DNA of 64,000 nt from Eledone cirrhosa (Eukaryota): assembly GCA_964016885.1 (NCBI GenBank), contig OZ024760.1, positions 23,870,001 to 23,934,000 of the forward strand, read 5' to 3'. Under the pieces are notes generated by a model. That model made no database searches. It worked only from the letters and a program-made list of their open reading frames with translations, and was not told the DNA's origin. The position numbers were made by a program, and so were the translations under genes. Below, piece by piece: positions 5,074-34,026 of the stretch (position 1 is its first letter; the number at the start of each line of letters is the position of its first letter).

Positions 5074-5232
5074 GGAAAGTGTATAACCCTGACGGCAGAG
5101 CTCAAGCCGTTTCGACGGCTGAGCTCTGCCGTCGGGGTTATACACTTTCCTATTACCCACTCTACTACCCTAAGTATTGAGTACTCTGGTGAGTTATGGT
5201 CCATCTGGTTCCTTGCCACACTTCATTCGTTT
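5074..5232 (+). mobile_element. Short (TA)n-flanked hairpin-plus-tail element, copy 1 of 6
   Basis: ggaaagtgtataaccctgacggcagagctc..gagctctgccgtcggggttatacactttcc hairpin, then tail acccactctactaccctaagtattgagtact..ttcgtt. Confidence 0.85.
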
Positions 5233-5546
5233 TATATATATATATATAGAGAGAGAGAGAGAGAGAGAGAGAGAGAGAGAGAGAGAGAGAGAGAGAGAGA
5301 GAGAGAGAGAGAGAGAGAGAGAGAGAGAGAGAGAGAGAGAGAGAGAGAGAGAGAGAGAGTTAGTTAAATCTTAGACAGGTACAAAAACAGAGAGGCAGTA
5401 CAAATAGTGGTTTATTAGGTTCACGCTTTTGAGAGTGTAGGGAGGGGTACGTTTTGATCATAAGCCCTTCATCAGGAGAAAACTGACTGGGTATGAAGAG
5501 AGTTCCAAGGGTGTGTGTATGTATGTATATATATATATATATATTT

Positions 5547-5970
5547 AACAAATGTTAAACAAGGTTCATTGATTAATCAATGAATATAGTTTTACAATAG
5601 ATTAGAAGCACTCAACAAGTAGTTTTCTGGAGTTAGTAATATTAATTCAAAATATTAATAAATATAGACATTCACGTAAATTCGGAGGTGCTGTGCTGTT
5701 TTTCAGTACGTCCTCATCAGATAAAATATATAAATTGATGTCTTACATACCTCAACTGTGCTGATGGTTCAATTCCAGTCTTGGCAGTCTGGAATTGCCA
5801 AGACTGGAATTGAACCATCAGCACAGTTGAGGTATGTCATACATCAATTTATATATTTTATCTGATGAGGACGTACTGAAAAACAGCGCAGTACCTCCGA
5901 AATATATATAATAAAATATATTTTTTGATTACGGGAATGTCTATATTTATTAATATTTTGAATTAATATA
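5547..5970. mobile_element. Fold-back hammerhead element in (TA)n
   Basis: 5639-5786 inverted with about 5795-5970 (centre about 5790); the left arm has a deletion through stem III and a tail of about 90 nt. Confidence 0.8.
5855..5917 (+). ncRNA. Minimal type-I hammerhead ribozyme
   Basis: attttat CTGATGA(5862) ggacgtactg..cagtacctcc GAAA(5899) tatata TA ataaaat. Confidence 0.85.
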
Positions 5971-6370
5971 TATATATTTATATATATATATATATATATA
6001 TATACATATATATACATATATATATATGAATTTGTTTTGCGAGGTTTTTGATATGAAATCGTGTGTCGAAACAAATATTGTTATACTTGGGGAGGGTCAT
6101 ATTGTTATAATAATATTGCCAGAAATAAGTCTATATATATATATATATATAGTCATGTCTGTATTTTTGACCGTTGGTCAGTCAGTGATAAACATTGATT
6201 GCTAAATGAATTAACTATGGAGGTATAAAAGATACAGAAGCGAAAAAGAAAACCAACCAAACAGTGAGTGTGTTCTGTGATTATTTCTGGCAATAGTATT
6301 ACAACAGTAACCCTCCCCAAGTATAACAATATATAATATATATATATATATATATATATATATATATATA

Positions 6371-6505
6371 GGAACAAGTAAGACCCCGACGGCAGAGCTC
6401 TGCTGTCGGGGTCTTACATGTTCTTATTACCCACTCTACTACCCTAAGTATTGAGTACTTTGGTGTGTTATGGTCCATCTGGTTCCTTACCACAATTTCT
6501 TCGTT
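6371..6505 (+). mobile_element. Short hairpin-plus-tail element, copy 2
   Basis: Same tail as 5074-5232; hairpin folds at gcagagctctgc; (TA)n both sides. Confidence 0.85.
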
Positions 6506-7367
6506 ATATATATATATATAGTATTAACGATACTATTTATGGTTATGTATATACTAAAACTTTTTATAGTTATATATATTTTAAACCCTAAACAGTTAAA
6601 GACAGAAATTTATTACTACCTTATTACCAGTAAGATAAATAGCTCAATGTAATAACATCAGTTGTTCTACAGAGTATATATATATATTAGAAAGTGAGGT
6701 TTTTTTTACAAAATGAAAAATAACCGAGGTGTCCTACACGAGTGAAAGAATAAAGAAAAAAAGATAAAATCGAAAATGCAACTGGAGTCTTATTTTTAAA
6801 AATATATATATTTATTTGGTTCCTTTACCGGTTTCGCAGTTCCTCTGCTTTTCAAAACTAGAGTTGAGATGGAGGGTCTGTGGTTTTCTCCACATTATAT
6901 ATATATATATATATATATATATAATGTGTGTGTGAGTGTAAGTGTGTGTATATATATTATATACATATATATATAAATCATTGATATACATATATATAAA
7001 TATACATATATATATATAAATATATATATATGTATATATATATGTATGTATGTACACACATTTACAACCAATATATATATATAAATTGTATATATATTGG
7101 TTGTAAATGTGTGTACATACATACATATATATATATTTATATATATATATATATATATATATATATATATATATATATATATATATTGGTTGTAAATGTG
7201 TGTACATACATATATATATATTTATATATATATATATATATATATATATATTGGTTGTAAATGTGTGTACATACATACATATATATATACATATATATAT
7301 ATTTATATATATATATGTATATCAATGATATTAAATAAATGGAAACTATATCTATAAAACCATATTT

Positions 7368-7426
7368 ATTCTATTATATATATTTCAAGGGTACCAAACC
7401 TTTGGTACGCACTCATCAGATAAAAT
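7368..7426 (-). ncRNA. Minimal type-I hammerhead ribozyme (family of the 26499 element)
   Basis: Reverse complement: attttat CTGATGA gtgcgtacca..tggtaccctt GAAA tatata TA atagaat; flank atattaaataaatggaaactata shared with about 26590. Confidence 0.75.
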
Positions 7427-30600: not shown

Positions 30601-30884
30601 CTTAACGAACAGCGAGGAATATTTCTATGTTGACCTCGGCGAGATTTAAGCTGTGGATGAAATGGACCTTAACGAACAACGAGGAATATTTCTATAATGG
30701 AACGCCTCTAACAACTGAACCAATTCTCCGCTTTAATCACACAATAAAAGCTTTAATAACAGCCAAAGCGACTCCACTTGTTGCAACAGTGAAGCACGGA
30801 ATCAGTATTAAGTGCATTCATGTGTGTTATCATAGAAACAATGGCGGCTGCTGCTGTGAGGACGACAATTGTGACCATGCTGCC

Positions 30885-31535
30885 GAAGACGACGATGATG
30901 CCGATGATGACGACGATGACGATGATGCCGATGATGCCGAATGACGACAGCAGCGATGAAGAAGACGGCGACGACGACGACGACGTCGAAGAAGAAAAAA
31001 GAAAAAGAAAAAAGAAAAAGAAAAAAGAAAAAGAAGAAAAAGAAGAAGAAGATGAAGATGAGGACGAGGACGAAGGCGAAGAGGGAGAAGAAGAAAAAGA
31101 AGAAGAAGACGACGACGACGAACACGGTAATGGTAGTGGTGGTAATGATGGTGATTGTACTAATAGTGATGGTGATGGTGGTGATGGTGGTGATAATGGT
31201 GGTGGTGATACTGGTAGTGGTGGTGGTGGTGGTGGTAGTGGTGGTGGTGCAGCTGCAGGTGGTGGTGGTAGTGGTGGTGGTGATGATGATGGTGGTGGTG
31301 GTGGTGGTGATGGTGATGGTGATGATGGTGGTGGTGGTGGTGGTGATGGTGATGATGGTGATGGTGATGGTGATGATGGTGGTGGTGGTGGTGGTGATAC
31401 TGGTAGTGGTGATGATGGTAGCGGTGCAGCTGCAGGTGGTGGTGGTGGTGGTGATGGTCATGGTGATGATGGTGGTGATGGTGGTGGTGGTGATGATGGT
31501 AGTGGTGCAGCTGCTACTGGTGATGATGTTGATGG
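30885..31535. repeat. (GAT/GAC/GAA/GGT)n compound triplet repeat
   Basis: Direct inspection. Confidence 0.85.
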
Positions 31536-32624
31536 TGTGCCGTTTGTTTTGTTATTCTAGTTATTTCTGTATACATACATACATACATACATACATACAT
31601 ATATATATATATATATATATATATATATATAGAGAGAGAGAGAGAGAGAGAGAGAGAGAGAGAGAGGGGGAAAGAGAGAGAGAGAGAGATGCTATAATTT
31701 CTTATATAAATGTTGATACTTATGCTTATCTACCATATTATGTATCCTTCTAATGTTCTTATGACAACCTTCTGATATTATATACTCCGATCAAGTCGGC
31801 CTTTTGCTATCATGAAACGATCGTAAATGATTAAATGTTTTAAACACTCTTTGATTGTTATTTATAAAGTATATAGATACATACATACATACATACATAC
31901 ACACACACATATATATATATATATATATATATATATATATATATATATATATATATATATATATATATATATATATATATATATATATATATGAATAAAG
32001 TTAGTCCTTCATCAGTGATTTTCCAACCATCATTGATATTTCATCGCTTTAAAGACCATATATCTCCGGTTGGTGCGAGCAACGGCTAAAAAAAGTCGTT
32101 GAGACACGTAAATAAAGGGGACACGAGAGTGTAAACAAACAAAGATGGTGAAACAACGAAAAGTGAGGAAGAACGAGTCAAGTCCCGTATATATATATAC
32201 GGGATAACAGGTTATCGTTATAGGCAGTCCACTTAGATTTAGTCCAGTTAGAATACTCCGTGTAGTGGATGGTATTAACGTATGGCTTCGTTTAACTCAA
32301 CGAGACGTTTCCATAGTGATGCTGCGAGTTCGCGGTGATTTCTATGTAGTTTATACTTGGAGTAATAATAGTTCAAGAAAGAAGAGTGACATGGTTGGCT
32401 ATACAATAAGGGCTTTATTCACAGTGCTGACAATTGTTTCTTTGATCTGGTAGGTATAGAAGTTTTGTTATTTTTCTGCATCATAATTGATAAATAAAGT
32501 GTTGTCGGTGGACGCCCTGTTAGTGTGTCATGTATTAACGTTCAGTACAAATACTGTTGAATTAATTGTATGTTGTTTTATTGGGGAGATGAGGGGTTGT
32601 AAGTTGTTACCAGTGGTTCCCATA

Positions 32625-33150
32625 ATGATGATGAGTATGGTGGTGGTGTGGTGGTGGTGGTGGTAGTATTGGAGGTGGTGGTAATAGTGGAGGTGGTGGT
32701 AATGGTTGTGTTGGTGGTGGTTGTGGTGTGGTGGTGGTGGTGATGGTGGCGGTGGTGGTGGTAATGGTTGCGGTGGTGATGGTGGTGGTGGCGGTGTGGT
32801 GGTGGTGGTGATGGTGGTGGTGGAGATGGTAGTGAAATGGTGGTGGTGGTGGTGGTGGTGGTGGTAATGGTTGTGATGGTGGTGGTGGCGGTGTGGTGGT
32901 GGTGGTGGTGGTGCTAGTATTAGTGATGCTTCCGATGATGATGATGATGATGATGATGATGATGGTGGTGGTGGTGATAATGGTGGTGGTGGTATCGGTG
33001 CTAGTATTAGTGACGATGCTGATGATGTTGGAAGTGGTGGTGGTGTTGGTGGTGGTGAAGGTGGTGTTGGTGGCTGTGGTCGTGGCGGTAGTGGTGTTGG
33101 CGGTGGTGGTGGCGGTGGCGGTGGTGGTGGTGGTGTTGTTGGTGGTGGTG
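32625..33150. repeat. (GGT)n-rich simple repeat
   Basis: Direct inspection. Confidence 0.85.
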
Positions 33151-33867
33151 GCGCTAGTATCAGTCTCGCTGCTGCTGCTAATGGTGGTACCCTCCTACCC
33201 AATTCGGTCACCAACAATCTAATATATTGAGACACAATTACAATTCCCTCTCCAGAAGAATTCTGTTATTCCACTAATTATGTTCGAAAATTAATCAACA
33301 CCACATTTCCCACGTGATATCCCAGTGATCATATTTAATTAACAAATTATTATTATCACCATTATCGTTATTATTAATTAGAAGTAGTATTGTTGTTGTT
33401 GTTGTTGTTGTCGTCGTCGTCGTCGTCGTCGTCGTCGTGAATTTTTACTGTTGCCCAACCGAATAAGCACTGTGTTGTGTAAGTGCAGTGATTTCGTGTA
33501 TATATATATGTAAGTATATATATATATATATGTGTGTGTGTGTGTATATATATGTGTGTTTGTGTGTGTGTGTGTGCGTGTGTCTCTGTATATATATATT
33601 TATATATATATATATATGTGTATATATATATACACATATATATACATATATATATATATATATACATTCATATGCATATATACATACATATATGTATATA
33701 TATATATATATATATGTATATATATATATATATATATATATAGACATTCATATGCATATATACATATATACATATATATATATATATATATATATATATA
33801 TATATATATATATATATATATATATATATATATATACACACACACATGTATATATATATATATATAT

Positions 33868-34026
33868 AACGAAGGAAATGTGGTAAGGAACCAGATGGAC
33901 AATAACGCACCAAAATACTCAATACGTAGGGTAGTAGAGTGGGTAATAGGAACAAGCAGGACCCCGACGGCTGAGCTCAAGCCGTTTCGACGGCTAATTC
34001 TGGACTAAATGAAAAATTTTATTCAT
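33868..34026 (-). mobile_element. Short element copy 6, lacking the fold-back arm
   Basis: Same tail abutting (TA)n; continues cggctaattctggactaaatg, then joins a LINE fragment. Confidence 0.8.

Follow-up and report, generated by a model that had tools for sequence, protein, structure and literature searches.

Six related short insertions, here named copies A-F, lie within 29 kb in a 64,000-nt stretch of the Eledone cirrhosa genome (contig OZ024760.1; the window denotes this whole stretch). Each is 135-198 bp long and, as blastn of the window bears out, sits where an earlier note on this DNA had placed it. No seventh copy was found in the window with two of the copies as blastn queries (word size 7), the best other match scoring 22.9 bits. 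All six close with TTCGTT at a TA run, measured as 7-33 nt of pure TA, and all five folded copies open with GGAA directly after 15-42 nt of pure TA, the two boundaries that the note had described. Copy F is without a 5' TA run. TA runs adjoin 11 of the 12 copy ends, such runs making up 13% of the window. The six copies are very probably of Penelope-like element (PLE) origin, and likely represent extremely 5'-truncated insertions of a (TA)n-targeting PLE, each cut to its pseudo-long terminal repeat (pseudo-LTR) end.

The copies share one plan (Table 1). In five of the six, an inverted, 5'-truncated copy of the element adjoins a direct copy, and in all five a tail of 81 nt is present on one end only. 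The inverted arm begins at one fixed inner site, 81 nt upstream of the outer end, so that the inverted repeat is not terminal; the element continues for 81 nt beyond its inner end, in keeping with the earlier view that the family is not a miniature inverted-repeat transposable element (MITE) with terminal inverted repeats. TA-targeting MITEs are also short, non-coding and hairpin-forming and lie in (TA)n, a setting in which any target-site duplication of the family would be masked. The family differs from them in that its inverted repeat is not terminal and the centre of the repeat varies, and a MITE was rejected because the repeats do not stand at both termini and because neither the length (135-198 bp) nor the turn (three classes) is uniform. 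A head-to-tail (tandem) pseudo-LTR copy was not found among the six, and tandem pseudo-LTRs are expected to be lacking in insertions so short.

The two arms of a copy resemble each other more than they resemble the arms of other copies. When the 17 nt adjoining the inner end are compared, 7 of 84 columns differ between the arms of one copy and 222 of 849 between arms of different copies, which upholds the contrast drawn in the earlier note, whose three quoted arm variants are present as written. Four of the five inverted arms are closest to the direct arm of their own copy; the exception is copy B, whose inverted arm is closer to the direct arm of copy C. The arms of C are identical (0/58 differences), and the arms of the other four hairpins carry mismatches. 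Sequence comparison thus supports a single source sequence for both arms of a copy, and the differences between copies likely reflect different source loci. The tails differ by a mean of 8.3% over 15 pairs, those of C and D being closest (3/81 differences), and A and E have four diagnostic bases in common as well as the same turn. With positions counted on the 139-nt direct strand of copy F, used as template throughout, source-level variation is concentrated in one patch, chosen post hoc (7 of the 8 positions 47-54 vary, one of these sites resting on F alone, versus 5 of the other 131), and this 8-nt patch has six variants in the six copies. The direct arm of D has a 15-nt deletion that ends at the predicted hammerhead cut site, and its inverted arm has no deletion there.

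The position of the turn falls into three classes rather than five independent events. In A and E the inverted arm extends to template position 12 and the direct arm starts from 22, the two overlapping in ACGGCT. Copy B turns inside GAGCTC at position 29, and C at position 1, leaving a single base unpaired. The arms of D extend to positions 5 and 2, its junction being that of C minus 7 nt, and F ends at position 1, so that D and F are compatible with the turn of C. The four palindromes at which the turn had been placed are present as quoted, and A and E have theirs in common. No copy extends beyond position 1, C, D and F all ending within 2 nt. Of 1764 position pairs, 10 offer template microhomology of at least 6 nt, and three of the five junctions (A, E and B) make use of it.

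The loops record which strand went further. The template palindrome reads AGCCGT-CGAA-ACGGCT, whereas the loops of A and E read TTCG; the 2-nt loop of D has the sense reading. A complementary DNA (cDNA) that starts from the tail forms the bottom strand, so that its snap-back would leave CGAA on the top strand. TTCG in A and E therefore means that the tail-less strand went further along the template than the tail-bearing strand, which requires either an antisense template or a second cDNA attached to the other target end. The antisense loops thus disfavour snap-back of a tail-primed cDNA and fit twin target-primed cDNAs joined at the palindrome; of the two origins that the earlier note had offered, snap-back or twin cDNAs, the second fits better.

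Part of a ribozyme probably lies within the arms. What is likely a type I hammerhead's 3' half is found on the direct strand. Both arms of C hold it in full, as do the inverted arms of A and E; in the inverted arm of D, GUC is replaced by GUA. The 3'-half pattern, picked after inspection, occurs in 20 of 20000 shuffles. The statement that no hammerhead core is visible was accordingly right for the 5' half and too strong for the rest, GAAA, a 5-bp helix III with palindromic loop and GUC all being present. The arms of the family end before any CUGANGA. Rfam gave no hammerhead match at a family copy or at two clear neighbouring hammerheads (three small regions in all) and is blind to these motifs, since it fails even where the hammerhead is plain. 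Across the whole window, microsatellite-microRNA (miRNA) matches dominate the 150 matches listed out of 734, and copy A matches an miRNA model with a score under the model's gathering score. Folding of the 139-nt direct strand gave z = 0.00, and 11 aligned tails yielded no consensus structure, so that neither supports a conserved structure in the tail.

Table 1. Family copies, neighbouring fold-backs and other repeats, in positions of the 64,000-nt window.
Feature	Positions	Strand	Details
Copy A	5074-5231	+	Inverted arm 5074-5120, direct arm 5115-5150, tail 5151-5231; overlap ACGGCT, one T absent after it; loop TTCG, antisense reading
Copy B	6371-6505	+	Inverted arm 6371-6400, direct arm 6395-6424, tail 6425-6505; turn in GAGCTC, without loop
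Copy C	10726-10923	-	Inverted arm 10923-10866, unpaired base 10865, direct arm 10864-10807, tail 10806-10726
Copy D	17750-17925	+	Inverted arm 17750-17803, direct arm 17803-17844, tail 17845-17925
Copy E	27283-27440	+	Inverted arm 27283-27329, direct arm 27324-27359, tail 27360-27440; turns as A does, loop likewise antisense
Copy F	33868-34006	-	Direct arm 34006-33949 and tail 33948-33868 only; ends at the base where C turns
Likely 3' half of type I hammerhead (in F)	33960-33988	-	GAAA, 5-bp helix III, palindromic loop, GUC, then GGGGTC
Start of tail segment ACTC...GAGTRCT (in F)	33922-33940	-	8 nt past inner end; F mismatched in second box, A-E match
3' end of presumed L1/Tx1-like element, short AT-rich palindrome before it	34007-34500	+	Not part of the family element; bounds copy F
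Fold-back, one-sided tail	4079-4506	+
Fold-back, one-sided tail	5545-5969	-	Tail 94 nt
Fold-back, one-sided tail	19195-19716	-	Tail 39 nt
Fold-back, one-sided tail	26497-26977	-	Tail 88 nt
Fold-back, one-sided tail	45532-45969	-	Tail 107 nt
Fold-back	4517-4923	-	Tail and shortened second arm
Fold-back, symmetric, long loop	~15410-15900		Loop 262 nt
Fold-back, symmetric, long loop	48281-48550		Loop 40 nt
ACTCC...GAGTGCT in neighbour tails	4421-4448, 4575-4602, 5607-5633, 26558-26580, 45592-45634		Invariant across four otherwise unalignable families
Perfect 19-nt inverted repeat around copy D	17697-17715, 17937-17955		Outside the TA runs; unique in the window
Inverted repeats left of copy B	6076-6331		53-nt repeats ~150 nt apart, internal TA run; related ends at 13340-13404 and elsewhere
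Reverse transcriptase reading frame, presumably R4/Dong-like	36500-39925	+	Intact, 1141 aa; followed by repeated 3' fragment 39991-40250
Tandem array	41063-42687		28 copies of 59 bp
Presumed L1/Tx1-like fragments	23883-25750, 34027-34500, 52665-53664		RVT_1 at 23883-24611
SINE-like repeat copies	8678-9153, 21090-21754, ~54060-54780		Tandem at 21090-21754 (191-bp period, 3.4 copies)
Satellite arrays	1-862, 1002-1391		80-bp and 79-bp periods

The same layout recurs in unrelated fold-backs of the window. A hairpin scan listed 22 groups, missing B and E; eight non-family groups were followed, and the remainder were set aside as simple-repeat, paired-SINE (short interspersed element), composite or short. 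Five of the eight have one arm at TA and a tail of 39-107 nt on the other. A scan for minimal hammerheads found five matches, which lie in arms of three of the eight (those starting at 4079, 4517 and 5545) and each have a palindromic helix III; the mean over 30 shuffles was 0.37 matches, none palindromic. Core-like hammerhead boxes appear in three further fold-backs under looser matching. Each neighbouring family has 1-2 copies in the window.

Several of these neighbours have features of their own. The fold-backs starting at 4079 and 4517 belong to one family (76% identical), stand tail to tail on one short TA run and have a minimal hammerhead in each arm; in the second, part of the arm is repeated in a 15-nt loop. 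Hammerhead-like cores also occur in the fold-backs starting at 5545, 19195, 26497 and 45532. In the fold-back starting at 5545 the loop holds a short duplicated segment, and helix III has been lost from the direct arm only, as in D. The two symmetric fold-backs have a hammerhead-like core by eye and are possibly two-tail or no-tail forms.

The tails of five neighbours contain ACTCC...GAGTGCT, about 5-6 nt past the inner end in four of them and 25 nt past it in the fold-back starting at 4517, because the arm of the latter is shortened. From its sequence, the motif is a candidate protein-binding or start-site signal. In five of the six family copies a one-mismatch form of each neighbour box stands at offset 8. 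A positional test that allowed mismatches was matched by 427 of 100000 shuffles and by 22 of 5262 real windows, and a relaxed pattern, designed on these very tails, had 11 matches where 0.57 were expected, the 10 loci concerned all lying in the tails. The tail-motif link between the family and its neighbours is suggestive only.

We read the family as PLE-derived because its layout matches the published PLE signature and because five of the eight unrelated fold-backs are built alike, with hammerheads in three of the eight. PLE insertions are reported to have an inverted 5'-truncated copy, a tail of 30-40 bp on one end and (TA)n targets (PMC8557442). Such targets are reported for Naiad and Hydra, and a microsatellite bias for Neptune; in Penelope/Poseidon the pseudo-LTR and tail overlap the start of the open reading frame (ORF), and PLE terminal repeats are described as direct or inverted. 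Palindromes at inverted junctions have been reported in PLEs, self-priming by antisense RNA being proposed in 2013 (PMC3846280). With the endonuclease-bearing (EN+) PLEs (Penelope/Poseidon, Neptune, Hydra, Naiad) the family shares the adjoining inverted truncated copy, the tail on one end, the palindrome or short overlap at the junction and the (TA)n target; it differs in that the insertion is only 135-198 bp and has no ORF between the repeats. Naiad 3' ends from octopus, in the part of the data accessible to us, gave no match to the family by eye, and Octopus vulgaris is reported to have Penelope-like elements at 6.83%, in 190 families (PMC13282606).

Poseidon offers a biochemical parallel. 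Purified Poseidon protein was reported in 2024 to nick and extend both strands of AT-rich DNA in vitro and to initiate at two sites of the RNA, between which the tail lies (PMC11167929). The family resembles PAc, the Poseidon element of Anolis carolinensis, in its two fixed tail-bounding ends, AT-rich target, likely hammerhead sequence just upstream and AC-rich stretch near the inner end. In its accessible part, the PAc study locates start sites in vitro without deriving inverted junctions; in 5/5 folded copies of the family, each arm takes one start site. Minimal hammerheads with a palindromic helix III have been defined in PLEs, with opposite-strand pairs 100-700 bp apart (PMC4209133), and non-LTR retrozymes are described as repeating head to tail, every repeat having a complete type I hammerhead (10.64898/2026.07.22.740005). 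The family shares the palindromic helix III loop and the scattered truncated motifs, but it has only the 3' half and its copies are inverted, not head-to-tail tandem. A retrozyme was rejected, there being neither head-to-tail repeats nor a complete type I hammerhead.

We favour, at a probability of roughly 0.6 for the full mechanism, a truncated PLE insertion whose hairpin would arise from two target-primed cDNAs joined at a palindrome. A PLE protein acting in trans would nick both strands of a (TA)n tract; from one nick, reverse transcription would start at the outer tail end, and from the other at the inner site. The two cDNAs, both antisense, would stall within ~60 nt, where the hammerhead region has its nested palindromes, whereupon their free 3' ends would anneal at the inverted repeat of the template, fill in on each other and have the join sealed. 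Both arms would thus be copied at each insertion from the same kind of source RNA. Whereas the ends, arms, loops and targets are read from the copies themselves, the enzyme, RNA intermediate and joining would follow PLE precedent. In LINE-1 (long interspersed element-1) twin priming, two target nicks prime two cDNAs that are joined by microhomology. The second start of LINE-1 is variable and its cDNAs copy different parts of the RNA; the start in the family is fixed and both cDNAs would copy the same part, giving a palindrome. No application of twin priming or loop polarity to PLE junctions was found in the literature as far as accessible, the search lying outside the PLE reviews of 2005-2006.

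Several observations weigh against this mechanism or against PLE origin. No difference in start site was observed between the strands in vitro, a result that on its own would not lead one to expect one tail per insertion (PMC11167929, in the part accessible), and the family tail is 81 nt, versus 30-40 nt in published PLEs. Only half a hammerhead is present, the 5' half (CUGANGA) being absent from all six copies, so that helix II cannot be drawn. Provable microhomology at the C and D junctions is only 0-1 nt (1 nt in D), and A and E may represent one inherited event, not two. Turn class also tracks relatedness: at template position 35, A marks the three far-reaching copies and T the three short copies, a 6/6 match by turn class (chance 0.1). 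Against the earlier note, the closest relatives have turn points in common, so that the turn may be partly inherited rather than newly made at every insertion. A profile and a weight matrix built from the neighbour tails alone failed to retrieve the family tails, and six family motif probes gave no homologous match in the accessible part of the Naiad/Chlamys/Hydra supplement (PMC8557442).

Coding sequence gives no help either. Among 150 of the 205 candidate peptides of the window, Pfam found no PLE reverse transcriptase or GIY-YIG; the only two RVT_1 matches lie in LINE-like ORFs. The 45-codon open frame of the element found no relative in protein searches, with nothing at E <= 1 among longer or near-length proteins and atlas scores of 0.79 or lower; P0001 (E 3.6e-4), the sole match among 1.84 billion representatives, was dismissed as a repetitive unrelated protein. 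All six tails are free of stops in one frame, but an open frame also occurs in half (50%) of shuffles, so that the frame is uninformative for a coding hypothesis. Of 15 source-level changes counted by hand, 8 are synonymous (p 0.02, uncorrected for frames), and in five of the six neighbours no frame is open from the hammerhead through the tail. A 27-nt family pattern had no exact match in bacterial and archaeal genomes. The family may already be named in repeat libraries or supplements.

Among the alternatives, a self-propagating fold-back mini-PLE is unlikely, though the likeliest of them. Its source RNAs would be transcripts of the fold-back copies, with the arms regenerated in each cycle: twin priming would copy the direct arm twice, the cDNAs would anneal via the template's own hairpin, and the turn would be inherited or would shorten toward the tail. 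The limit at template position 1, within 2 nt of which C, D and F end, would follow, but the same limit would result if a full-length RNA had a strong stop at position 1. The agreement of turn class with the position-35 allele would also follow, yet with n=6 the association is not significant, and shared turns are expected because the 58-nt arm has only three strong palindromes. The six patch variants would point to many sources, six copies in 29 kb contrast with the 1-2 of each neighbouring family in the window, and loss of the hammerhead 5' half would be a natural outcome. If such a cycle did operate, the family would consist of MITE-like hairpins that spread by way of RNA and have lost one half of their ribozyme.

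PLE origin through antisense self-priming, in which the transcript folds at the palindrome and primes its own copying (PMC3846280), is a published model for the same anatomy and predicts the antisense loops of A and E. We consider it improbable, because the antisense half must be trimmed at an identical inner base in all five copies, which the two-start result explains directly; the sense reading of the 2-nt D loop also speaks against it, though a later deletion could account for that.

Two further readings are less probable still. Snap-back of a single tail-primed cDNA, joined to the left TA tract via the TAT beside the inner end, could draw on the 3 nt of homology between TAT and (TA)n and is compatible with B, C and D, but it predicts a CGAA loop where A and E read TTCG, and the direct arm of D lacks 15 nt that the inverted arm has. 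A DNA element inherited as a unit, MITE or Helitron-type, with arms homogenised by gene conversion, is about equally implausible. Helitron-type elements with subterminal inverted repeats exist, palindrome arms can be homogenised after insertion, and related copies do have turns in common; however, the repeat is not terminal, the length ranges over 135-198 bp, unrelated hammerhead-bearing neighbours are laid out alike, and the differences between A and E would require three positions to have changed in concert in the two arms. We give hardly any weight to a SINE-like passenger of the R4/Dong-like or L1/Tx1-like LINEs, despite the intact 1141-aa reverse transcriptase ORF, as the tail is unlike the 3' end of either LINE in this window (a LINE-dependent SINE was rejected on this ground), or to a sequencing fold-back artefact, suggested by the identical arms of C, as four of the five hairpins have mismatched arms and all ends are fixed, unlike read chimeras.

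Other repeats surround these insertions. Copy F had been put forward as the start of a longer unfolded master; we reject this, because F stops at the base where C turns and abuts the presumed L1/Tx1-like fragment. That LINE 3' end lies in the opposite orientation to F and shares 68% identity across 220 nt with the end of the reverse transcriptase-bearing fragment at 23883-25600. The 59-bp tandem array is apparently derived from the C-terminal coding sequence of the 1141-aa ORF. The SINE-like repeat probably resembles cephalopod SINEs.

The structure of PLE inverted ends is already known. Very short copies with an asymmetric palindrome record which strand went further, so that genome-wide counts of loop polarity would separate tail-primed snap-back, antisense self-priming and twin cDNAs by sequence alone. 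Such stubs, of which there are about a dozen in this window, are easily misfiled as MITEs or pre-miRNAs.

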